The position numbers and the translations under genes were made by a program. Shown piece after piece: positions 5,961 through 26,625 of a stretch of DNA of 64,000 nucleotides. This stretch comes from Botryllus schlosseri (lineage: Eukaryota), in NCBI GenBank assembly GCA_051294905.1, contig CM119371.1, forward strand, positions 36,954,001-37,018,000, in the 5' to 3' direction. How positions within the stretch are numbered: the stretch's first letter is position 1; each line of letters starts with the position of its first letter. The notes below the pieces were generated by a model. That model was not told the DNA's origin and ran no database searches. It worked only from the letters and a program-made list of their open reading frames with translations.

Positions 5961-7655
5961 AAAAAGTAGCGAAACGTGTATCGTGGCCGGAAAATCAGCT
6001 CCTAAATACTAGAAAAGCAGTAACTTATAAGGCAAGAACTTAGCAGTGTTCGAAGTATTTGTCTCACTTAATATTTGAACGTGTGGTCAATTTCCCTGCA
6101 TGACTGTGTGCATTCGATTTCCTCGATACATTTCTTGCATAAGCATGCAGTCTTAATTTAATGTATCGGAGCGCCATTCTGGAAAAGGCGACATTAGCGT
6201 GGCACGGGGGGAAATCATTTGGTTTCGAAAGTTTTTCAAAAATTAACAGATCAGGTGAATTTTCGAACCGCGCCAAATCTATATTACTGCGAAAAATTGT
6301 TTCTATAATCCGGAAAAAACGGAGCATTGACGGAGTCGGGTGGGTTAAGTATTCATCCTCATTTGCAATTGACAAATTTCCATCCTTAGTGTAGGACCGT
6401 ATGACTGTTAAATTTGAAGAACTGTGAGATGAACGGAGAACCGGTTCCTGTACGGAAAAATGCGAGCGACAACTCTCGCACTCTGAATGCTTGATTTCCT
6501 TAGCGATCACCCAGCCGCAAACGTAATAGTGGGCGTTTACTTCTCCTTCGTCCAGGCAAGCGTCGGCAAGTAACTTCAAATTTTCTTCCACTTCGTGTCT
6601 CTCCTCCTGTTCTTGATTTTTGTGGTTGTCCACCGCCGATTTCAAAAAATCTATCAAATTCGCTGAATCATCCTGCTCACAATTCTCCCCTCTGCTGCAT
6701 CCCATGTACTGCGATACGCAAATGAGTTTTAAGGCGTTACGGAATTGTATCGCTTTCGGGTGTGATTGACCACGGCTTCTTATCTGCAAAATATATATAC
6801 TATTATAATGTCAAGCATATTTCTGTTACTTCAGCGCAGAATAGATAATACCACATAATAGCCTACCTGCGCAAAAAGATTCTCTACGGCATCTTGCGTG
6901 AGGCGGCCAGTGAGAAGGTATTTTAGTTCACCTCCGATTACCAGCGTCTGATGGAGATAGAGGACGCTTTGGGAGGACATCAATATCCCGGTCTGGACAG
7001 GCTTCCATCCTGGCTTCGAAAATACGAGGTCCGCAGTCATTTTGATAGCCTTCGATTTTAATTACGATTATAGTGGATAATTGTGATGAGCCATTGCAAA
7101 ATATCAAATTACCATTTCGATTGATTGTATTTTTGCATCGGAGGTGGCAAATAAACCTTCTACTGGCCTTCTAACATTCATCAAATCGAACCAATTATTG
7201 TAAAATTCGCAGAAAAAGGCAGTTGTCTCTGCATCCTTGTTAACAGCACCGCAAGCGTGCATTGCTCGTAGAGCAGACGCGGTGCTGTGACTGAGTACCT
7301 GGAATAAATATGATATGGTATATCCAAAACCAACAGATGCATAGGCCTATAGGCCTACATGAAATGCAATATCATGACGAATATTGATATCTCACTTGAG
7401 CAGCAGTGCAAACTCTCATCTTTTCCAGTTTTGTCGGGTGGACGTGTTTTTGAGTAAGTTTTGGTGCCATTTTCAGTTCCTTACCCTCCTGGTAGTTGAC
7501 TAATTCCTTGACGTAAGATGAAGAAACCTAAATTGCGGAGATGATTGTGATGGTTTAAAAATATTAATATTAGTACGTCCTACCATACCGTTGCGGAAGT
7601 TAATGGGACATCTGGTATTGTCAATGCATATTCAAGCAAGTAAATCTCATTGGAT

Positions 7656-9290
7656 TGTAGCGTCCCTGATACGGCATGGAAACCTAACAGGGACTTCGTC
7701 GTGTTCGTGCTTTCGGGACCTCACCTTTCCGCGATCGCACGCACCGGTAACACAAATCCGCATTGCTTAATACGCATATATTCACATAACGACATAACAC
7801 CGCAAAACATACACTGGCATAATACTCAACCAACTACGTTACACAACATACATAAATCACTGCACACACCCCAGTAGCCCTGTCAACCCCAGACACTTCC
7901 TACTGGCTACTCCACTTGCACTACTACTTCAACTTCAGACCCCAACATACTCGCTCACAACCAGCACCTCCAGCCACACTCCCAGCCAGACCAAGAACTT
8001 CTCCTTCTACCAGACTTCCACGTGCAACTCTCCTACCGAACATTCTAGAAACAGCTCAATGACAGCACAATGTGATTACCAGAGCGTTACACTACCCTCC
8101 CCTTTCTTGATTAGATTTTCTGAAAAGAATATCTTAATCACCTAATCAACATGCATCAATCATCACGACTGCATAAAATATCACATTGAAGCAATAAACG
8201 ACCCGCGATTCCGTGAGTAGGCTACACTTCTCCGACTGTTCCCCCACATCACAGCATGTCGCACCAGTTCACAGCAGCCTCGGCCGTCGGTCCCCATTCC
8301 ACAGCTGTTCGCATCAAAGCAGCTCTCAACGAGATGCACCTTCACTGTCACCAATGACCTTTCCCGGAAGGCAACACCTGATTCCATGCCGCAGCAGACA
8401 CCGACACATTAGCCAATGTTGTCTTCATCTCGAGACCCCCACTGACATTTCCCGGTCCCGGTAACCTCTGCGCAGCAACACAGCGCTTTTCCAGCTCCAC
8501 CACAGCCATGACCCGACGAGTCACTGCATTCGACCGACACGCCCATAATGTGTGACATTGACGACCGCCACGTCGTCTTCCAGCCAAGACCAGCATACTC
8601 AGGCTCCATCAATCAATGTTCACTGTTCATAACACAGCCTTCCGCAGGCTCCGACAATCAATGTCCTGTTCATAAACACAGCCTTCCGCAGGCTCCGGCA
8701 ATCAATGTCCCGTTCATAAACACGGCCTTCCCCAACAGCACGATATCACCAGTCTCTTGTCGTAATTCCCATGCATACGAAACAAATCTTCCGATTATCA
8801 CCATGTACCGGTACGGCAACCACGAAAATGAACAAGCTCCTGGCGTGCTCGCCAATTGTAGCGTCCCTGATACGGCATGGAAACCTAACAGGGACTTCGT
8901 CGTGTTCGTGCGCTCGGGACCTCACCTTTCCGCGATCGCACGCACCGGTAACACAAATCCGCATTGCTTAATACATATATTCATATAACGACATAAAACC
9001 GCAAAACATACACTGGCATAATACTCAACCAACTACGTTACACAACATACATAAATCACTGCACACACCCCAGTAGCCCTGTCAACCCCAGACATTTCCT
9101 ACTGCCTACTCCACTTGCACTACTACTTCAACTTCAGACCCCAACATACTCGCTCACAACCAGCACCTCCAGCCACACTCCCAGCCAGACCAAGAACTTC
9201 TCCTTCTACCAGACTTCCACGTGCAACTCTCCTACCGAACATTCTAGAAACAGCTCAATGACAGCACAATGTGATTACCAGAGCGTTACA
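7656..9290 (-). mobile_element. Short non-autonomous LTR retroelement (TRIM-like)
   Basis: Near-identical TG...CA LTRs at 7656-8091 and 8857-9290; 4-bp TSD ggat. The minus strand has PBS TGGCGAGCACGCCAGGAG (tRNA-Arg-like) and PPT AAGAAAGGGGAGGGTAG. The ~765-bp interior has no pol. Confidence 0.92.
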
Positions 9291-9681
9291 GGATAAAAAT
9301 GAGGACCGTAAATTTTTTATAAGATGAGGGACATCAGTCACGAAACATAGCTTCGCGCCATCAAGATGCGGATGGTCAACCAATGACGATACTTGATTTC
9401 TAGTTGGTTAAAACGTTCGCAGTTAGTTGAACTGACAAAGGCGATCCATACTAATCGTCACCAAACCTTCCCGTTTTGATTTTGGCAGATCGCCACATTG
9501 CTTGATTGGATGGCCCCATATCACTCACGACAGCAGCGACGAACATTCCTCGTCGACCCAACTCTTTGATCAATGTTTTTGTCACTTCCCACAATTGATC
9601 GCCAGATACCGAATTTCCCGTGAAATAATAAGCTGTTAAATTCAATATGAATTTTCCCTAAGATGTGTATTCTCTATATAA

Positions 9682-11280
9682 CAGTGGTTCTCAACCTTTT
9701 TCACCTCGCGGACCGGTGAACTTTCACAATTGAAATGAAGCCAAAAGTATGCAACCGTTTTTGAAATTATATGGTGCTAGAGAGTGACGAGATTTATAGA
9801 GTTTTGATCGCATAAAATTATCTTTATGACGGCATCCATGTGATGTTATGGTAGCTAGTCTGCTGAGTCGAGGTAAAATTGCCTTGTCGAGATAAACGTG
9901 CTACCGCAGAGAGTCTTTTACAGTTTTTCGCGCCGAAGGCCGCGGGCCTAACCGACCACGCCAACTCGAATAATATTCTTCTCTTTGACAATATCGAAAG
10001 AAGAAGCGTTACGGAGTCGAACCAAGCACCTTGTCGTGCTACCTTGCTCATTCCAAACTGCCACCAGACACATAAGCTAGTCTGGCAACTACGAATACAA
10101 TGCGGCGAATACCGGCCATCCGCAAATCCGGGCCGAACAATCACTTCGTAAGCCCACCCCAAAAAACGGTTGTCTTGGGCCACCACAGGGCGATAAGCCA
10201 AACTTCCGGAGGGCTTCGCTCCCAGACCCTACAGTTAGGTGGATATTTTCACCTGTACTTGTGAGCACATTCATTCTGCTCACCGTAAATGGCGGGTATT
10301 GATCCGTTTATATTTATTTATATTCGAGGTGACCTAAGTCGCGAATGTAATTATTTTCAATTTCATGTTTCCTTTCCCATGATACATGGATGAATAAAAT
10401 ACTTGAAACCCAGCGTTTACGGAGCTTAATCGCGCCAATAGCGAAAATGTTGGGTCATTCATGACTGAATCGGATTTCTCACTGCCGTATTTGTGGCACA
10501 CCTTTCAGAGTCCCATGTCAGCCTAAGCTTGATTATGTGTTGGTAAGTCATGGCGTGGTAATGGCCGACGCCGAATAGCTATTTCCATAAATCATGCGTA
10601 TTTCTCGGAGAAGGGCACCTAATAAGCAAGACATTTAGCGACACTAAATCGCGAAAGGAAATTGAAAAATGTTGGAAAAAGTTTCAAAAGAATACTCTAT
10701 TATTCATGTTCATTTGCAAAATAATTTTTGCTCTTTTTTCAAGCTCGGCCCCTCTCCAATTTGGCGGTTTGGAGTGCCCCAGTTACGGTCCTATACAAAA
10801 TGAATGAACTGAAAACGAATGATCGCGCAAACTGCGCTGCTTAGCGATAAGTCAGCTCGAATCTGTTCTGTAGCCTACTTGTCGCTCGCATGTCGTCAAA
10901 TGACACCTCTTGAACTTAAAGCCAAATCGAACACGTTTCCAGCCCTAATGTTACCTCACGAAGTTCTGAATCATTTTAAAATTTGATGTTTTATTCATTT
11001 TATCAATGGGCGATAGGGCTGTTCAAAAATAACTTTCATCATTTACTGATTAAATTGTCAGGTGACCATAAAAACGCTGCACACCAAATTTGGTTCAATT
11101 CTAACAATTTTAAGACTCCGCAGGTCAGTAAATGGCTGGAACCCAGAAAATAAAAGTTATTTTTGAACAGCCCTAACGGGCAAGCCTTTAACATTGCATC
11201 TTGAAATTAAGGTATAAAATTGTAATATACCTGGCGGACCGGCAGGAATGTCGTCGCGGACCGGCGGTTGAGAACCACTG
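9682..11280. mobile_element. Non-autonomous hAT element in a P-1 intron
   Basis: CAGTGGTTCTCAACC / GGTTGAGAACCACTG; TSD ctatataa / ctttataa. A related copy starts at ~63747. Confidence 0.85.
11016..11173. mobile_element. TA-flanked MITE (Tc1/mariner-type) nested in 9682-11280
   Basis: GGGCTGTTCAAAAATAACT / AGTTATTTTTGAACAGCCC flanked by TA on both sides. Relatives occur at ~1128 and 58408-58862. Confidence 0.8.
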
Positions 11281-13929
11281 CTTTATAATACGAGTATACT
11301 ATCATATATATATATATATATATATAAATACTATATACCTATTACTTGCTTCCACTTTGTGGCAAGTCCCTTCAGCATGAAGCACAAAGCGTGTGATGCG
11401 AATTCTTGTCGTTCGCCTGACCTGAACTCAGGGCTGACGTACCCGACAAATGATTTTAATCCGGGGTCGAATTCCACGCTCTGGGACAGCTGCATTTCAT
11501 CTAGAGCTAAAATGCAGTTCCTGTCCCAGTCATGCAGGCTGCCTAGTTTTTTGGCAATCCAATCCAAGACTATGTTCTGGATTCCAGCAGCAAACTTCAG
11601 TGATACCACCCGTTCACAGAGCGTACGATAAGAGGGAAGAGGATAGGAGGATTTTCTCATGTATTCATATCTGAAGATCATTTATACTGTTGGAGCTCAA
11701 AGACTTAAATAAATCCTGTAGTTATCTACCCGTGTTTTCCAGATGAAAACCTGATTTTCAATGCTGACATAATTGTGTCATCGCTCCATTTGCATCCAGA
11801 GGCCTGCCCTTCTCTTTTCAAAACTTGAATCTGATCCTCGTTAAGAAACCTTCCTATCACCTTCTCCACCTGTTCCATCTTATCGGAGCTTACATTCAAC
11901 TACCAAAATGATCAGGAATTAGGTGCAATAACGCTATAATCACATTTGGATATCTTGCATGGTTCTCTGTATTTGAAATGTAAAAAAGGCTAATGAATTT
12001 CACAAGGATTTCGCATTACCTGCGATTTCAGCCGCGCAATTTCTTCATCTTTTTCCTGACACTGGCCTTGGAGCTGCAATTTGTAAGGAGCGATTTTATA
12101 TCGAAGTGGGTGATATGAGCTGTTACTCTGTCTACACTGAAATTTATGGAGCTATCGGCAATATTTAATCTTACCAGTTCCAGCTCCTGCCTCAACAGGG
12201 TACACTCCTCACAAGAAGCCTCTTCGATGATAGTCTAAATCAGTGGTTCTTAACCTTTTTTCTTCCACCACCCCCTTTCAAAAATTATCGTGCTCCAGCG
12301 CCCCCAAACTTCATATTGTAAGAAATGTAATAAAGGCAATGAGTAAGAGGGAGGGCCGTAACAGCACTTCGTTAACCCCCCTAAAAACGATTGCCTTGTG
12401 CACCCATAGCGTGATAAACCGAACTTCTGAGGGCTTCGCCCCCACGAACCCCATATCGTGATTTTGATGGAAAGCCAAGTTTGTGTGGCCTGGTCGCCCT
12501 AGATATCAAAATTTTCCATAATGCATGAATGAATAGGTGGTAATTACATATATAAGTCGCTATAAACTTTTTATCCTCTCAGCCCACGTAATCAGATTTA
12601 CCAGTAGCACTGAGTGAGCTGTGGTATAGGAAAATAAAGGGCACGTAATTAATAATTAAACGTATTCGGGCGTGCCCGCAAGTACAATTATTCGTTACCA
12701 GGGCCGTAACAGCACTTCGTCAGCCCCCCCCCAAACAAAAAACGTTGGTCCTGGGCCCCTATCGGGTGATAAACCAAACTTCCGGGGGACTTCACTCCCA
12801 GACCCCAATAGGCTGACCGCTATTTGCTGATAGCCTATTAGGTATCTACATTGGGTGTCGATTTACTGAGGCAGGTATTCTCGCAAAAAATTTCACTAAT
12901 TAATGATTGAATTGGTCAATATCATTGGGAATTGCATGTAAATTGAGATCAATTTTATCCTCTCTCTGCTCACGTAAACACATTTACCGGTAGAGCTGAG
13001 TGAGGTGCAATGTTCCCTCTAAGCTGCGAACGTGCGCAGTGCTGAAACGGTCTCTGCGCACAGAAAATCTACGTTGCGCACAACAAATCCGGAGTTATTA
13101 CCTTTTTTTAGTCGTTACGTACTGTTGTCCAAGGGTCAGCGCAGTGAGTTGTTAAGTGTGCGCAGACTCATCAAAACTTAAAGGGGCACTGCACTCAAAA
13201 AATGATGTGGTCTCAAATTGAAGGGCAGATCGAAAAAAAATTTTTGGCCGCAGCCGTCTTCTTCAGAACGCCACCGTAATGGAGCTGCAATTTATTGAAA
13301 TTTCCAGAGTTGCACCCGGCTGCAGCAGTCGCGGCTCCGGGTAATTTCTTAACCCGTTACATGGCACAATGACTTCATCGCCGCACTTGCTCGACGCGAT
13401 TACGCAGACGAACTTTAGATAGTTTTCAGTCGATGTTATGAAGGACTCATGTCTTGCACACCAAGGCGGCGCACAACGTACGGTTTTAGGTCAGGAGGAT
13501 TTGTGTCTGGAGCTTGTCATGACTCTATAGTATTTGCCGGTTGAATGATACTGAGATGCCGTTACAGTTGTATATTGATGCAGATACAGCTGTCATTTTC
13601 AAGATGTATTAATGACTGCACAGTGCACAACCTTTTGGAGTAGTGGTCTTGCGGAAGAGACAGACACAGGATATTTTGCATCATTTACCCATGGCATAGC
13701 AACCATCTTGATACGGTCTAGTTTACTTGTTCAAGACACAGATGTATAGATAATCAACACGAAAATATCATTATTTCATTCTCATCAAAGTTCCAATATT
13801 GTTGTGGAAATTTTTATCGTAACATTGTTGTTCTCAGTTTCACAAACGAATCTTCTGTCTCGATCAGTTCATTCATGCAATTCCTTTGACACGTAGTTTA
13901 CATAAAATTGGTTAAAAATTATTAAGGGT

Positions 13930-18409: not shown

Positions 18410-19163
18410 TATGCTGTAGCCGTTTTTCAGGGTAACAGTAATTTCTTATCCACAACACGAATATCACCAGTCAGGGTTCCCCATGAACATGACAAAATTC
18501 ATGACATTCAAAATTGGTGGTTCGGGTACTGTATAGGAAAATTCATCATCCCTAACCAAAATCCAACGGTACGCAAACCTAACCTCAACACACAACTCCG
18601 CAGCTGACCCTAAAACATATATATTCATTATATTGTAATCTTACTAATCCCCAAGCCATAATTTTAAGATACTCTCAAACCCTCATCTTATGATTCTCCA
18701 ACCTGAATGCGAAACCAAATATGACCGCTCTGAATTTTGAAATGTTCAGAGGGCACACCGATTGGTGATGGTAATGTTTTATACATAACATAAGAATAGG
18801 ACATGATCTATTCCTGCCCTCAAGAAATAGAATACACTAGGTCCGATTAATAGAAAATCTACTGACTGAATATCGTCCGTGGAACGCCGTATCTACACCA
18901 CCTTGGCGTGTAAGACATATTTGCTTCATAACATCGGCTGACAACTATCTGAAGTTCGTCCTCTGCGTGACTGCGTAATCGCGTCGAGCAAGTGCGACGA
19001 TGAAGTCATTGTGCCATGTAACTATAGATAACTAACCTACGGATAGATGGGCAACACGTGATTCACGGTCGAGAGCCCAGATGCCGTCAAATTTGTTGTC
19101 GCTTCACAGCATGAAGCGGCAGGTTGTTGTCCAGATTGATGTTTGGTGCAGATAGGATATAGG

Positions 19164-19604
19164 TAGGCTTACCATACGTCCGTTTTAAGAGGATTTGTCC
19201 TCTTTTTTGAAAGTGTCCTCGGAGGACGCCCGATTGTCCTCTTTTTTGAGATTTTGTCCTCTTTTTTGAAAATTTAGGTCAGATTTATAGCAAATTGCGA
19301 GTGATATGCCGAAAATAAGCACAGAAGTGACGGTCCGGCGGATATTTCGGTGTGAAAAACGGTGAATTTAGCTCTGAGCGAAAAGCTGACCTTTTTTTTT
19401 TTTTAGTCATCCACCTGGCAATGTGGAGAGAAAAACGGTATTCTGAGCTCTGAGCAGAAGTGATGGCCTTTTTTTTTTTTTTTAGTCAACCGATCACAAA
19501 GTGGGTATAATGCACCGGTTGTTGAGAGTTCTACTCCGGTTTTGCATCCTGCAAATTTCTGAAAAAGTGTCCTCTTTTTACATTTTCAATATATGGTAAG
19601 CCTA
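19164..19604. mobile_element. TAGG-ended MITE (hAT Blackjack/hATm-like) in the P-2 left TIR
   Basis: TAGGCTTACCATA / TATGGTAAGCCTA, with duplication ggatatagg (9 bp). The right TIR provides the empty site. Confidence 0.85.
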
Positions 19605-19860
19605 GGATATAGGGAAATCACAACAGGTTATGTAGTGATACAGTACATAGCCACTGGCGCGGCTATCATTACATTAATATCAGGGGGATATTTCATGAGC
19701 AAAAGAAGTCATGATATTCACTCTATTATTAATTGGTTTCAATATTGACTTCGGCTGAGGTTTCCTTGAACTATTTTGGTTTGTATAATCATAGAGGTTT
19801 TGATATGTATTGATTAATAGCCTAAAGAGAAGACGTTTTCATGATTCAGGCATAATTAAG

Positions 19861-20790
19861 ATGGAGGAATTTGATTTCGAATTACTGACTGAGGATATCA
19901 TCCATGAGTTACTGTATGTAGATATGGATGACAAATCTATTGACAGCAGCAGTACTCCGAAGTGTTCAAAAGGAAGCAGAACTTGTGGCGGTGTTACACC
20001 GGGACATGTGTCAGATGCAGGCAAGCCACATTGTGATATAACACCAGGGCAAATTATGGAGGCTCTCGATGAGAAAGTTGTTTTAACACCATTCGGGCAG
20101 GATAAAGTAAAGCAGTTCATATCGGATTATGTTACCGCCACAAATTCTGGATCGATTATCACTCTGTACCCAACAGAGTGCCTCCAGGCAGATAAATACT
20201 TTGACAGGTTAACGTCAGACCATCGGCCAGCACGACTGTTGCTTGAGGTTATGCGTAAAATTGCAGAAATTGGTGATACGAGAAAAGAAGATAAATTGAT
20301 TGGAGGAGAAATTGGACAATTTGAAAATGAGACACTTGAGTATATAGCTGGCTACACCCTGAAAAAGGCTCATGCGAGATTCCCACTAAGCATTGTCGAA
20401 CAGTTGTGCAGTAAGATGCCACAAGGGTCCCTTATCCGCTTAATGGAACGAAAAGCGAACTCCCTACTTTATCCTTCTGAGGATTACGTGTACTTCGTAC
20501 AGTATGTGTATTTAAAGTTTGCTAGGGAAGCGAGCAGAACTGCAAATAAAATAGATTTCCGGGCAGTGACGGATGAAGTTCTTCATGGTGAATATTTCAG
20601 GTCAACCGTTCAGACAGTTTCTGACATGTGTGTTGATGCTGCTGATGAGTCAAATGTTGAGGAACTTTTCATTTACGTCACAAAGCTAATGGTACGACTG
20701 TTTTCTCATAGCTTTGCTAAGAAGTTGTTTGAGAGGATGGATCAACGAGTCACAACTGGAGCTATTTCACTTCGAAGTCAGCTATCATAA
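19861..20790 (+). CDS. P-2 ORF2, ~309 aa, intronless; resembles the P-transposase C-terminal domain
   Basis: Uninterrupted ORF (ATG at 19861; frame open from 19810). Motifs: ENETLEYIAGY, SLLYPSEDY..F and KLMVRLFSHSFAKK. Confidence 0.8.
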   Translation: MEEFDFELLTEDIIHELLYVDMDDKSIDSSSTPKCSKGSRTCGGVTPGHVSDAGKPHCDITPGQIMEALDEKVVLTPFGQDKVKQFISDYVTATNSGSIITLYPTECLQADKYFDRLTSDHRPARLLLEVMRKIAEIGDTRKEDKLIGGEIGQFENETLEYIAGYTLKKAHARFPLSIVEQLCSKMPQGSLIRLMERKANSLLYPSEDYVYFVQYVYLKFAREASRTANKIDFRAVTDEVLHGEYFRSTVQTVSDMCVDAADESNVEELFIYVTKLMVRLFSHSFAKKLFERMDQRVTTGAISLRSQLS

Positions 20791-21158
20791 AATTAGCCAG
20801 TTTTTGTGCCACAAAATCATGAGAGTCAAGTTTTCAGCCAGGAAATCCCACAGATATCTAACACCTCGGAAACAAGTTGAATCAAGGCCGGAAAGCAGTG
20901 TACAAAAATACATTTTCGTAGCATATCCCTGATGTCATAGTCTCCTTGCTTTGCATGTTGATACTGCCTAGCCATGCAAAGATTCCTCCTATGTAAAAAA
21001 GAGGTAAACCAACACTACGGCTGAAACCTTGACGTTGGTGTGTTGGCTATTGTCCAATATCAGCTGGCAGTCCCTTCGTACTGGTGACAACATATCAAAC
21101 TGACATTTCCATCCTCAGTCTTTTCAATATTTATTGTTTTCAATATTCAATATATTAT

Positions 21159-24100
21159 TCACTCCTTGGATGACTTTTGCTTGGGTTGTGTAGATGCATC
21201 ATAAGGCTTTGCAGATCTTTTGATTATTTTCGATTGGGTGACATGATGGATGTCATACGCCAGTTGTGAAATGTCCGGATTTGTCCGTCTTCTACCCATT
21301 TGCCTCTGCAATCATAATCCCTGTCATTGCTCTGACACCAAATAATGTTAAGGATCTTACCAAATTTCCAAAAAATGCCTCTAGCACATCCTGTGTGAAC
21401 GTGCCAAGGGCCAACTTTGGCATTTCTTTAAGGAGACGATCGCACAGACCCACCATATTGCGAGACGTGAAAATTAGGCCTTCCATCGTGGGTTTTGCCA
21501 TTATTCGTTTTGGCTCACCACGACTTTCAGCATATTTCTAAAAAATTACATGATAACCCGAAAATACCTTGAATAATAACTATGAGGAACTGACCTTCCA
21601 ACTCAATAATCGATCCGCAAATTCACTCAGCCATGCAATTCTTTCATCGTCCAGGCTGCATATCGGAAAACTAATGCGGCATGTGACGATATTGAACCAT
21701 CTGTTTTAGGTCATAAAATCAAGCCCCTTGTTATATAAGTGAAAATTCGTTACTCGTACCTTTCCATCATCAGAACAAAATCAGATGTACCTGTTGCTCC
21801 CATCCCTTTCAAACAATTTCCAACTTTGTGACTCAATACACCCGTAGCCAAACTGACATTCATCTGGCATGAAAAATGGTCACATCTCAGCCCAGTGAAT
21901 TCTTGCAAGCGCATTATCTAGACCAGTGCTTCTCAACCTTTTTAAATTCGCCTCCCACTTTCCATCCAAATTTCATTGCGTGGCCCACCAGACACCCTTT
22001 CGCGAAAACGTTTAATATTTTGACATTTTTCGACTTGCGTGGTAGAAAACAGATCTACAAATTGGGATACATCATCGTTTCTTAAAATGTCTTCGTGACC
22101 CAAGTGGGCCACAGCTCACCGGTTGAAAAGCACTGATCTAGACCAGGGGTGTCTAACATATTTTTTGCCTACTTTAGATCTTGGATTTAAATTAACATGG
22201 GCCAATGTCAATCCGGACTGGTAAAGTGCCAGGCTGCGCGACTCCATGTCAAACAGTTTTTGGATATCCGTCCATAATATATCTTGCCCTTTCCCATTCA
22301 TGTTCATGTATCGAGTTCCCTCTGCTTTCGATGAATAGAGAGAGTTCCGTGTGGTCTGTTGGGATGTAAGAATATATCGGGTATGGTAGTGCTCACCGTA
22401 CTACAATAATATGATCTAAAATTATGAGGTAAAGCTACCTTGAGGAGATGCTGAGGATCGGAGCATAGAAAAATTGGCCTTTCAGGAGCGTACGGATTTG
22501 GAGCAGTAAAAAGTCCATCTAATGGAATCTTCCTTGTCCCAGCAATCACCTTGAAAAAGCTCCTGTTGACTGATAGCCCATCAGCGACAAGGGCATGGAT
22601 GTTGAGCCCTCTCGATTCACATTCATCCAGCATCTCCCAGAATAAGAATGCCAATTCGTCAGGTGTCAAGTGGTGTGTTGGATACCATGCCAATGGTAAT
22701 GATATCTCCTTTTTGACACTTCGGACATAGAAAACTGAATATTTTTTATTAAGGATTGATTTTTTGAAATGCTCGACTGTTACATCATAACCATACCTAA
22801 TATGTGACTTGCAATCACACTTCTGCTTGTGATTGGTGACTCAACAAATCCCACCAGTTTTCCATCCTTTATGACTAAATTTTCACGGACTAGTCACAGA
22901 AACATAATACAGTGAAAAGTTGAGGCGATGTTCATGAACCATTGCACTAACTTTTCATTTCATCAATGGTAATATAGCATGGTAGTTTCTTGTAAGTAGA
23001 CATCACCCGATCGATTTCAGTAACTGCTGCTTTGTTGATGCCACAGGAGGGAGTGATATAGTTTCTTTGATATATTACGGCATGGTTTTTAAAGCATTTT
23101 CGAATTCATAGTATGCTTACCTATAATTTCGGATTGTCTTGACTGACGGTAAGATCAAGACATTGGTCTCTCTGATGAATTTATAGGCCACAGGAGACCT
23201 AGAAAATAATTCAACGGCCCATTGAATGACGTCTGGATGGTAACGTCGCGCAAATTTGTTCATTGAGCTGCATGCTTGTTGGCATGAATTGAATAACTTC
23301 TGCCACTCCACAATTTTTGCTTCTTGCTGACTTGATTCCTGTAAAACAAGTTGTTCACTACAATACAGCAATTATATCTTTAATGGAACTACCTCTGTGT
23401 TGTCAACCAAGACATCAACTTCGATGGCATCACTACATCTCAATTGAAAGTTTGCACATGCTCGACATGCACTCTTAGTTTGCCAACCTTTCCCTGAAGT
23501 ACTAAACATCATACACCGCAATCATATTATGTAAATGGAGAGTTCTACCCAAAATGGAGCACCCAGGAGACCTTGATACGCTGCTAGTAACTACTTGAGC
23601 TCCATTCCATTTGACAAAAGGATGATGTACTGCTCCGCCAATGTCGCCTTGCAAGCCACAGCATATTGATAATTCTTCCAGTTCACCTTCAAGTCAATTA
23701 CAAAATAACAATAATATTATATATAAAATCAAGCATTTGTCTGATTGAACTTGCATAACCACTCCAGTATCCCTGTATGCATTATCTGTGATACTCCAAG
23801 ATTTTTGAAATCCAGCTGCCAACCATAGCATGCAACACTTTCAATTCTAACTTCATTGTTGATTACAATTCTGTGCAAAATCAGTATGATTATCAAGACA
23901 AACTCAACTAATTGTTAACAAAATATAACCTTAGTTTTGGTACCAAGCTTTCTTCTACATTCTCTCTTTTCTCCACTATCAAATCTGCACCGTGATCAGT
24001 AAATATCCAAGCCTCTAAAAATAATCCTGAACTGCATACTGCGAATAGTGCTTAGCATGAGTTGAAGACTTATTTACAGAATAACTGTTACCTTGAACAT

Positions 24101-24793
24101 TTTTAGGAAGGTCATTAATAGCTTCTCGAAGTGCTCTGAGTGAAGAGTGAACTTGTCTGCGAGGTGATAGATGCCTGCGGTTTGTGGGAGGTTTCCTGAC
24201 TGAAGGCTTTGCACTATGGGATTTTTGTGGCAAATTCAAGGTTGGCAAGGCTCCACAACGAAGAGATCGTTTTCCACCAGCAGATATGATTATGGCGTCC
24301 TTTTCAAAATGGTGATCACAGATGGCTGCACTGAAATATGAAACAGTATTACTCTCGCATGATTTTCACAATAATTCAAGCAGAATAATAAATATCCAGA
24401 ACTGATCGGACTGAACAAGATATTGTAGCATTGACCTACTGGAAACTGAAAATAAAAACAACTTGCAGCAGTGGAAGCGAAATATAAAATATGGTAACAT
24501 AGAGGATAACATGTCGGCTACTTCCAATTATAAAGGTAGAGATAGTAATTATTGAGACACAGCTGATACTACCAAGAAACAAGTCGAACTTACGTTTCTT
24601 TATGCAGTAGATGTTGGATATTATCACCTTTGGACGGATCTCGCCAATGCAATATGAATTGGGTTAAAGCACGTCTGTGCCTCCGCTCTTCATCAGACGT
24701 TGCCAAGTCTGGCCTATATATTGTGAAGATAGAGCGTTTTTCCTTAGATTTACGCTGCCAGTGACATCCTGGTATTGCGCAGGTGTTTGCCAT
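21159..24793 (-). CDS. P-2 THAP + DDE transposase, ~15 exons, apparently intact, no C-terminal domain
   Basis: Hand splicing gives MANTCAIPGC...AICDHHF...ALPT (THAP), LILPSVKTIR, TIDEMKIRENL (D1), VADGLSVN (D2), SDPQHLLK, WFNI, TQDVLEAFFG (E), NPDISQ, then a stop at 21159. An alternative short last exon would end at ~21095. Confidence 0.88.
21924..22135. mobile_element. hAT MITE in a P-2 transposase intron
   Basis: CAGTGCTTCTCAACC / GGTTGAAAAGCACTG; perfect 8-bp TSD atctagac. Confidence 0.9.
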
Positions 24794-26625
24794 ACTAAGC
24801 GTTCAAGACTCAATAATTAACAAAATGCTTATTATACCAATCTGAAATTAGTCAAGTTCTCCAGGTCAAATCCAAAATAACTGAATAGTGCATCAAGTCA
24901 CAAATTGAAGAGTGGTGCAAAATCTATCCAAATACTGGTATGGTTGCTGCATCACAGCACAGTGCGCAGAAGCTTGCTGACTGACAGCTGACTACGAAGT
25001 GAAATTGATCCTGTTGTCAGCCTGGGGGGCACTCTGTTGAGTACAGGCACCTTGAAAAAATCTTCTTTTACTACTTGATTCAGATTCGAGAATCATTGTA
25101 CCCAGCCCTATGCACACATGATATCCTCAGTCAGTAATTCGAAATATAATTATACCATATTAATTATGCCTGGATTATGAAAACATATTCTCTTTATTTA
25201 GCAATACATACTAAAACCTATCTCTGATTATTAGGGCGTTTTATTGACCACATTATGTTAAAATTGTAGCCAACTTCTTATCTTCATTTCTGGTAGGATC
25301 TAGCCGTCCTAACCAAGTAGTTCAGCATCAAAAAACGTTTTTGGCTACGATTTTGACAAAATTTTGACATGTCAAAAAATGGCCGCTCTAATGATTATAC
25401 AAACCAAAATAGTTAAAGGAAACCTCAGCCGAAGTCAATAATGAAACCAATTAATAGTAGAGTGAATATCATGACTTCTTTTGCTCATGAAATATCCCCC
25501 TGATATTAATGTAATGATAGCCGCGCCAGTGGCTATGTACTGTATCACTACATAACCTGTTGTGATTGCCCTATATCCTATCTGCACCAAACATACTTGC
25601 ATTTTTAACAGTCAATCTGGCCAACATGCTATGAAGCGACAACAAATCTGACGGCATCTGGGCTCTCGACCGTGAATCACGTGTTGCCCATCTATCCGTA
25701 GGTTAGTTATCTATAATGTAACGGGTTAAGAAATTACCCGGAGCCGCGACAGCTGCAGCCGGGTGCAACTCTGGAAATTTCAATAAATTGCAGCTCCATT
25801 ACGGTGGCGTTCTGAAGAAAACGGCTGCGGCCAAAAATTTTTTTTCGATCTGCCCTTCAATTTGAGACCACATCATTTTTTGAGTGCAGTGCCCCTTTAA
25901 AGCGAACATTGTGAGGTTTCTTGGAAACTGTAGGGCCCGTTACTAATAATTAAACATATTCGGGCGGGCGAACCCGTTGGTATGACTTCGTTGCATGATG
26001 TTATTTCGTGACCCCGTGTCTGCAATATCAAAAAATATAGAATCGCTCAACGGGGATATCGCCTAACAGGAATATCCCTGTCGCCAAATCGTACTAAACT
26101 AAAATACGCACACGATTTCAAATTGGTATTTCTTCACTGACATATAATTTTTCCCTGCCATATGGAATTCGTCTTTTGGGGTTCAGATTGCCAACACAGG
26201 AACATTCGGTGTCAGTCATTTAGGCGCCCATGGACAATTGAACCTATATGTATTTTGAAGGCTATATGTGACGAAGTTTTCGGTGTTAATTTGCTCTGAA
26301 TACTCATTAGGGATATGTCCTATCACCACATCATCTACTGCGAAGCCATTTTTCTCCAGCGCCCCCAATACCGCCCCCCTGAGCCAAGCGCCCCCCCATA
26401 TCGCCCCCTGAGCGTTTCCGCCCCCTTCAAGATCACCAGCGCCCCCTGGGGGGCGCTGTGGGCAAGGTTAAGAACCACTGGTCTAAATGAAGAGATTATT
26501 TGTGCAGACGAATGTTGGTTATCGCCAAAACATGTGAAGAAGCAATGTTGGTCTACCAGTGATTCTCCTGTGATTTGCTCTTCACCAGACATATCGACGC
26601 AATCATTGCAATCCATTTCTGTGAC

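Follow-up and report, generated by a model that had tools for sequence, protein, structure and literature searches.

Can the transposase of a P element be assembled from two separately encoded proteins? The question is raised by an element of Botryllus schlosseri, which lies in a 64,000-nucleotide stretch of contig CM119371.1 (positions 36,954,001 to 37,018,000) that was analysed as a whole and will be referred to as the window. The transposases of the Drosophila P element and of THAP9 are single multi-domain polypeptides (PMC7776569, PMC10824691; papers are cited by PMC identifier, from excerpts of their text), and in the Drosophila protein DmTNP the RNase H region spans residues 200-566 and the C-terminal domain (CTD) residues 566-751 (PMC10824691). 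Positions 19023-25715 of the window are a DNA transposon of the P superfamily. For this element a first-pass annotation, made from the letters alone, had proposed a split transposase, consisting of a spliced gene that lacks the CTD and a separate convergent open reading frame, ORF2, that resembles it. The basic description was borne out: the terminal inverted repeats (TIRs) measure 330 bp with arms that are 97-98% complementary, the 7-bp target-site duplication (TSD) ATGTAAC stands on both sides, the transposase stop lies 54 codons past the E of TQDVLE (about 55 had been estimated), and the intronless ORF2 of 309 amino acids (aa) lies opposite, tail to tail with the transposase gene, the two stop codons being 368 bp apart. 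As set out below, ORF2 is very probably homologous to the P CTD, and the convergent arrangement of the two genes is a conserved feature of the lineage.

A search of 1.84 billion representative proteins yielded 34 relatives of ORF2 at E ≤ 0.001. No long fused protein was found among them; as all were only 83-331 aa in length, the relatives are regarded as stand-alone proteins. One database homolog aligned across residues 3-309, which supports the absence of introns from ORF2. Searching the PDB with a profile of ORF2 and 24 relatives gave 6p5a_B as the best match (E 7.2e-4), which is the C-terminal chain of the Drosophila P transposase complex, and the alignment covered the EYIAGY helix and the segment following it. 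The Pfam family PF12596 (Tnp_P_element_C) was matched at E ≤ 0.1 by 16 of the 25 family members; thirteen of the 24 relatives reached E ≤ 0.02, and three scored above the Pfam cut-off (24.8, 26.5 and 23.3 bits). All PF12596 matches were limited to profile positions ~58-105. Further searches added little: a scan with the RNase H exon for relatives of greater length returned one 200-aa fragment only, a word-based search with the ORF2 family profile returned 5 proteins, no relative was detected in a JGI metagenome scan, and a search of the ESM Atlas gave no usable match.

The AlphaFold2 model of ORF2, with a mean predicted local distance difference test score (pLDDT) of 81, was all-helical from residue 60 onwards. 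Foldseek ranked 6p5a_B first among 350,542 chains (E 0.065, prob 0.99), and when 48,161 chains were aligned without Foldseek it was the only one with Z ≥ 8, the next best reaching 7.0. Residues 149-296 of the model were superimposed on residues 617-734 of 6p5a_B with a Z of 10.4 and a root-mean-square deviation of 2.3 Å over 114 of 118 residues. Since the fold and sequence signals agree and nearly the whole target is covered, we consider homology of ORF2 and the P CTD very probable. From N- to C-terminus ORF2 comprises an acidic motif, a helical half specific to the lineage (residues ~60-148) and the P CTD fold (149-296), and the long basic terminal helix is retained. The claim that ORF2 possesses an N-terminus of its own of ~150 aa also stood: for residues 1-148, comprising the acidic motif and the helical domain, the structure searches returned no known-fold counterpart (best Z ~5-6).

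The partner gene on the minus strand was characterized exon by exon. Pfam matches to THAP, helix-turn-helix (HTH), RNase H N-terminal and GTP-binding families fell on successive exons. The THAP pattern C...C...C..H spans exons 1 and 2 together, and PF05485 matched exon 2 alone at E 0.0013, under the cut-off because the intron splits the domain. Single exons matched the RNase H N-terminal family PF21787 at E 2.7e-9 and, weakly, the GTP-binding family PF21788 at E 0.04. In our own reading of the motifs, ITIDEM, VADGLS and QDVLE hold the three catalytic acids. The 3' end of the gene was the same at seven out of seven loci from five subfamilies: the splice donor directly follows FFGN[L/I/V], the intron measures 52-59 nt, and the last exon runs for 45-60 codons to its stop with a basic stretch at the end.

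A profile of the penultimate exon detected database proteins entered as 'uncharacterized', with species as named by the source: P0049 (635 aa) and P0045 (468 aa) of Ciona intestinalis, and P0042, P0043 and P0050 of Styela clava. In P0049, P0045, P0042, P0043 and P0047, the last being shown without its source organism, FFGN(L/V) is followed directly by R..G....NPD and the proteins end 55-60 residues further on, which confirms the last splice independently. P0050 and several fragments read through into intron-like sequence instead. P0049 is collinear with the window transposase from the HTH domain to the tail (window 22170-23338 corresponding to its residues 139-446) and carries PF21787, PF21788 and PF21789. 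The Pfam domains listed for P0045, P0047 and P0049 are RNase H and GTP-binding families, PF12596 not being among them; for the Styela proteins no precomputed domains are listed. Within the 64-kb window, a six-frame search with a hidden Markov model of the ORF2 family matched plus-strand ORF2 only, and no second CTD-coding sequence was found. Judged by its predicted exons, the transposase ends without a P CTD and is not a single CTD-bearing polypeptide. Because the same truncation occurs in five subfamilies and in the Ciona and Styela proteins, the short transposase reads as a conserved trait of the lineage rather than as decay. As an observation aside, one ORF2 relative (P0010) and one relative of the short transposase exon (P0051) lie on ENA contigs of 1,356,230 bp each, possibly one and the same contig.

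Conservation of the layout was then assessed genome-wide by crossing 130 ORF2 matches (113 loci after merging of fragments) with 114 matches to the penultimate exon. At 46 of the 113 loci the penultimate exon lay on the opposite strand, 397-1936 bp downstream of ORF2, whereas other arrangements were seen at two loci (on the same strand in both cases, 3.6 kb downstream at one and 2.1 kb upstream at the other). With the same convergent neighbour at 46 of 113 loci the layout cannot be put down to chance. Both genes were found inside TIRs flanked by 7-bp TSDs in the window copy, in L031 and in L033. L031 is a 96% copy with the same complete structure; L033 is a 5.5-kb element on C4 with an ORF2 of 61% identity, 405-bp TIRs matching at 97-98%, and the terminal bases of the window element. 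All three complete copies checked carry a TSD of 7 bp (ATGTAAC in the window, GTAAAAC in L031 and GGGATAG in L033), compared with the 8 bp that P elements make (PMC3698922). The convergent pair was also present at 45% ORF2 identity (L008-L012, L014 and L028), at ~30% (L037), in the still more distant element L034 (435-3830) and, weakly, in L038. Identities of ORF2 and of the transposase 3' end to the window copy fell together (61/68%, 45/73%, 31/61% and 31/54%), with a Pearson r of 0.78 and a Spearman coefficient of 0.58 over 10 pairs that are not independent of each other.

Selection on ORF2, a check proposed along with the original claim, was estimated from the ratio of nonsynonymous to synonymous divergence (dN/dS), which came to ~0.1: 0.10 between the window and L004 (the copy also designated L033) and 0.11 between L008 and L010. 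Between the window and L004, dN was 0.18 in the C-half of ORF2 and 0.38 in the N-half. These values point to purifying selection on ORF2 with the CTD half more constrained; two close copies contain one TAG each in ORF2. We also looked for signs that ORF2 has no homology to P CTDs, that it is absent from other copies of the family, or that copies exist with the segment in sense orientation and spliced to the transposase, and encountered none of these. Taken as a whole, the copies compared show that the convergent arrangement has been conserved within the lineage; it does not stem from an isolated inversion.

How are the two genes expressed? The coordinates of the element and its parts are collected in Table 1. 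The sub-terminal stretch shared by the two ends contains, on the ORF2 side, the 5' leader, the ATG and the first 41 nt of ORF2. On the other side it falls in a decayed ORF2 remnant, which sits upstream of the transposase ATG and whose own ATG almost directly hits a stop; the last 36 nt of ORF2 recur there at 25017-24982. In L033 the situation is reversed, the 405-bp TIR taking in 16 codons from the start of the THAP domain, which are present at either end. The two ends of the element are thus homogenised beyond the TIR, each gene lying downstream of the same sequence. As TIR and sub-terminal sequence are common upstream of both starts, the genes probably share a promoter, and the arrangement suggests that a TIR-borne promoter drives both. 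For the transposase, AATAAA is present on the minus strand at 21135; on the plus strand neither AATAAA nor ATTAAA occurs between the end of ORF2 and 21200.

Table 1. Features of the P-superfamily element in the window, in order of position
Feature	Position	Strand	Details
Left TSD	19016-19022		ATGTAAC, 7 bp; flanks CCATGTAAC / TATAGATAAC
Left TIR	19023-19163 and 19603-19796		Split by insertion; inverted arms 97-98% against right TIR
Insertion in left TIR	19164-19602		439 bp; private to the window copy
Sub-terminal stretch common to both ends	19785-19901	+	81.5% to inverted 25231-25118
ORF2	19861-20790	+	309 aa; ATG 19861, stop 20788-20790; intact
Spacer between the two stop codons	20791-21158		368 bp; genes tail to tail
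Last transposase exon	21159-21305	−	RQMGRRRTNPD...SSKE; 48 codons and stop at 21159-21161
Last intron	21306-21360	−	55 nt; gtaaga donor at 21360 ... ttgcag
Penultimate exon, putative third catalytic acid	21361-21537	−	End ...TQDVLEAFFGNL
GTP-binding insertion domain / RNase H C-part exon	21595-21699	−	WFNIVTC...LLSWK
GTP-binding insertion domain / RNase H C-part exon	21762-21863	−	MNVSLATG...MME
MITE-like (miniature inverted-repeat transposable element) insertion	21915-22165		Own short inverted ends; within transposase intron of the window subfamily
Transposase exon	22170-22358	−	
RNase H N-part exon, putative second catalytic D	22439-22734	−	...VADGLSVN
Transposase exon	22797-22889	−	
Exon with putative first catalytic D	22952-23064	−	...ITIDEMK
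HTH exon	23121-23338	−	PF12017 E 6e-7
Exons 3-4 and Cys-rich region	23385-24014	−	Join ~23690-23760 problematic, may hold frameshift
THAP domain, two exons	24594-24793 and 24092-24330	−	ATG 24793-24791
Decayed, internally deleted ORF2 remnant	24982-25231	−	Start and last codons, ...TTGSISLRSQLS
Right TIR	25386-25715		330 bp; complementary to both left arms, long blocks 97-98%
Right TSD	25716-25722		ATGTAAC, 7 bp; flanks TATCTATA / ATGTAACGGG

The window copy is rearranged in places compared with its relatives. The 439-bp insertion (element positions 141-581) was missing in all eight other copies aligned (L031-L035 and L039-L041), in which the left TIR is contiguous and measures ~330-340 bp. 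The insertion itself consists of loose repeats at ~59-104 bp spacing and T-runs, and Tandem Repeats Finder reported a T-run only. The blocks flanking the site of the MITE-like insertion are only ~40 bp apart in L033, and the window copy is without ~157 bp of that transposase intron relative to four other copies. For the step from exon 4 to the Cys-rich exon (~23690-23760), no GT-AG join that keeps the frame was found in either the window copy or L031. The corresponding stretch of L033 is open in a single frame throughout; of these copies, L033 seems preferable as a reference.

A genome search with the TIR gave 552 first-look candidates, of which 40 were scored. Among the matches listed, at least 42 reached E ≤ 0.001 at 79-100% identity; many of them pair 4.0-6.3 kb apart, with at least a dozen pairs showing the spacing of foldback copies. 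Three such copies, L039 (C2:11.54 Mb), L040 (C14:9.22 Mb) and L041 (C8:20.09 Mb), are non-autonomous, foldback-like and 4.9-6.1 kb long, and each of their arms consists of the TIR, the same internally deleted ORF2 remnant as in the window copy and transposase 3' exons. A young group within the 45% subfamily (L010-L014) comprises near-identical copies, with a synonymous divergence (dS) of 0.01-0.02, that keep the full ORF2. L012, the sole member of this group examined in full, is a deletion derivative and calls to mind P elements with internal deletions whose product is a short THAP protein. More distant is L036 (C4:8.997 Mb), where an ORF2-like C-half occupies a frame of ~165-166 aa and no transposase piece was found within 7 kb; roughly 35 loci resemble it, and the type may represent a different element family or a domesticated derivative.

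What could a separately encoded CTD do? In the Drosophila complex a flexible, disordered linker connects the RNase H domain with the CTD, which rests on the GTP-binding domain of the other subunit and makes many contacts with transposon and target DNA, its basic helix pointing toward the target; an isoform without the C-terminal part is a repressor that binds P DNA (PMC7776569). We propose that an ancestral one-piece transposase came apart in the flexible linker that follows the RNase H domain, and because the break falls in this linker, the split would have been tolerable. Gene 1, on the minus strand and spliced, would provide THAP, HTH and RNase H domains, the latter with its GTP-binding insertion, together with a short basic tail. 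Gene 2, the intronless ORF2 on the plus strand, would provide the all-helical CTD behind its lineage-specific N-half of ~150 aa. Both would be read inward from the TIRs, probably from the same TIR-borne promoter sequence. The ORF2 protein would then join the transposase-DNA complex non-covalently in the position that the CTD takes in the Drosophila strand-transfer complex, flanked by one subunit's RNase H domain and the other's GTP-binding domain and touching transposon and target DNA. Transposition would need both products, the transposase alone acting like the CTD-less 66-kDa repressor of Drosophila. It seems to us rather probable that a dimeric transposase-DNA complex receives its CTD in trans from the ORF2 protein, whose N-half would aid the docking. 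The complete picture goes further, namely an obligate two-subunit eukaryotic P transposase whose core and CTD are the products of convergent genes under mirror-image TIR promoters, licensed by the supply of CTD, in a lineage reaching the tunicates Ciona and Styela. This we regard as tentative, with slightly more doubt than confidence. Co-folding of P0049 residues 240-635 with ORF2 residues 55-309, a cross-species pair for which alignments were unused, gave a score of 0.00, which speaks neither for nor against binding.

Several observations weigh against these proposals. With respect to homology, the window ORF2 itself matched PF12596 at E 0.0016 and 19.5 bits, short of the 22.6-bit gathering cut-off; its sequence signal appears to depend on one helix motif; and for the model a Z of 10.4 would lie below the level where helical folds alone are safe. 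With respect to the pairing of the genes, 65 of the 113 ORF2-family loci were without a transposase exon in range, about half of these showing 28-29% identity and open frames of the 166-aa type (150-205 aa) and others being fragments. The derivative L012, which together with L069 forms one copy at C10:27.18 Mb, keeps an intact ORF2 of 331 aa and has lost most of its transposase, the whole stretch from the end of the first THAP exon to the start of the penultimate exon being gone. At L036 a C2H2 zinc-finger frame of 192 aa lies upstream in the same frame with one stop codon between. The window copy's transposase may be broken in its N-terminal third, and the copy possibly non-autonomous, because the frame-keeping join mentioned above was not found. 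Finally, ORF2 changes at a much higher rate than the transposase (45% versus 73% identity, for example), and its N-half of 150 aa without counterpart would fit a changed role.

The last two points would be expected if ORF2 acted as a regulator rather than as a subunit. Catalysis would then need no more than the short transposase, whose basic tail would replace the functions of the CTD, and ORF2 would restrain transposition or set its timing, for instance through competition for transposon or target DNA or through a poisoning of the complex. Such a role is also in line with the tail, a conserved basic feature of every subfamily and of the Ciona and Styela proteins alike, with the several near-identical derivative copies that keep ORF2 with most of the transposase deleted, and with the protein repressors that P elements are known to make (PMC7776569). 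However, in Drosophila the CTD contacts transposon and target DNA and the C-terminally short isoform is inactive and repressive, and the strict long-term linkage in at least five subfamilies together with a dN/dS of ~0.1 fits a needed component equally well or better. We consider a regulator unlikely, though it is the main alternative. A further possibility is that ORF2 has left transposition and kept the CTD fold only, serving for instance in nuclear import, chromatin targeting or the countering of host silencing. The acidic motif and helical N-domain, which match no known folds in the searches made, would suit such a departure, as would the loci that lack a transposase exon and the group with a zinc finger upstream. 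Yet it is the CTD part that is best conserved, and the terminal basic helix, which faces the target DNA in Drosophila, has been kept; we judge this explanation improbable.

An accidental layout is barely credible, whether it were due to a single inversion, to the nesting of another element or to misassembly, with an ORF2 that is open by coincidence. The private rearrangements of the window copy, with its insertion, its intron deletion and a possible frameshift, could be cited in favour. Nevertheless, the same order and orientation recurs at the 46 loci and in subfamilies down to ~30% ORF2 identity, three copies hold both genes inside TIRs with 7-bp TSDs, ORF2 shows a dN/dS of ~0.1, and the position of the transposase stop is conserved in five subfamilies and in the Ciona and Styela proteins. 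The copies examined already refute an accident, and their differing flanks and TSDs argue against duplicates of one segment. Supply of the CTD in trans by the ORF2 protein is the reading that we prefer.

The window contains a second, conventional P element, P-1 (6064-11681, minus strand), with matches to PF21788 (E 9.7e-9) and PF21787 (E 1.9e-17). In this element one exon (6064-6810) encodes the C-terminal region together with the end of the RNase H domain. The first-pass annotation had drawn its parallel from this exon, pairing three motifs of ORF2 with three of P-1. All six motifs are indeed present, but the similarity between the two sequences was not significant. BLASTP of ORF2 against the P-1 exon gave a best E of 2.5, and with hhalign the ORF2 family profile reached E 0.036 (probability 1.4%) against the exon and E 0.024 (probability 2%) against a 3-row P-1 alignment, over 68 columns and with the motif pairs in register. 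The P-1 exon itself had no PF12596 match at E ≤ 0.1 and no P-transposase match in the PDB, and its AlphaFold2 model, with a pLDDT of 36, was too poor for comparison. In the genome it gave 27 matches, including one diverged intact paralog at 33% (L056). Between the P-1 exons, at 7644-9296, ORF-like repeats occur near-verbatim (7798-8145 against 8997-9296, and 7644-7877 against 8512-8988), which suggests a direct duplication of ~1.2 kb. GC skew is strongly negative (-0.27) at 8001-10000.

P elements are a textbook system, but it was not until 2019 that their CTD was located in a structure, and knowledge of what it does comes mainly from a single cryo-EM complex. A lineage with a detached CTD represents a natural dissection of this enzyme, bearing on whether the domain acts in trans and whether the CTD-less core is a repressor or an enzyme, and it can show how a transposase splits without loss of mobility. 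The route may have been simple. As the TIRs are mirror images of each other, a promoter in one is automatically present, pointing inward, in the other, so that a 3' exon detached or inverted beside the far TIR would be expressed at once, the far-TIR promoter serving it. If the two-subunit reading is true, it is directly testable in Ciona and Styela. Genome annotation would call such transposases truncated and ORF2 an orphan protein. Full-text literature searches turned up neither a P-superfamily element whose CTD has a gene to itself nor any account of Tnp_P_element_C proteins standing alone, Repbase and the 2009 Ciona P-element paper being outside the scope of this search; it is possible that the two-gene P architecture has been catalogued before.

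Two-gene transposons are known from other superfamilies. The second protein of PIF/Harbinger elements is a Myb-like DNA-binding factor and is not known to be a piece of an ancestral transposase. These elements likewise combine a transposase with a second protein and belong to a different superfamily (PMC5543537). The layout is shared by MuDR of maize, whose two genes, the transposase gene mudrA and mudrB, are likewise convergent and have their promoters and transcription starts within the TIRs (PMC3440606). It differs in belonging to the unrelated Mutator superfamily, and in the excerpted text of the source mudrB has no known function and is not described as a detached transposase domain (PMC3440606). 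Within the P superfamily, Galileo and other foldback-like P relatives have very long TIRs (PMC3688188), and the window family likewise forms non-autonomous copies of foldback type with long arms (L039-L041). Unlike the two-gene element, Galileo is described as having one transposase as its product.

With Drosophila P and THAP9, the window element shares the three putative catalytic motifs, the TIRs, a short TSD (7 bp here) and the CTD fold (chain residues 617-734). In contrast to both, the CTD here is encoded by a separate gene on the opposite strand and carries ~150 extra N-terminal residues, and the transposase stops in the linker. The 66-kDa P repressor of Drosophila ends near residue 576. 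It is likewise a form of the transposase without the C-terminal part and arises by retention of intron 3. Whereas in Drosophila the CTD-less and the full protein are alternatives in the splicing of one transcript, gene 1 of the element described here encodes the CTD-less form only and the CTD comes from gene 2. If the two-subunit reading holds, the supply of CTD protein would be the same switch that intron-3 splicing provides in Drosophila.

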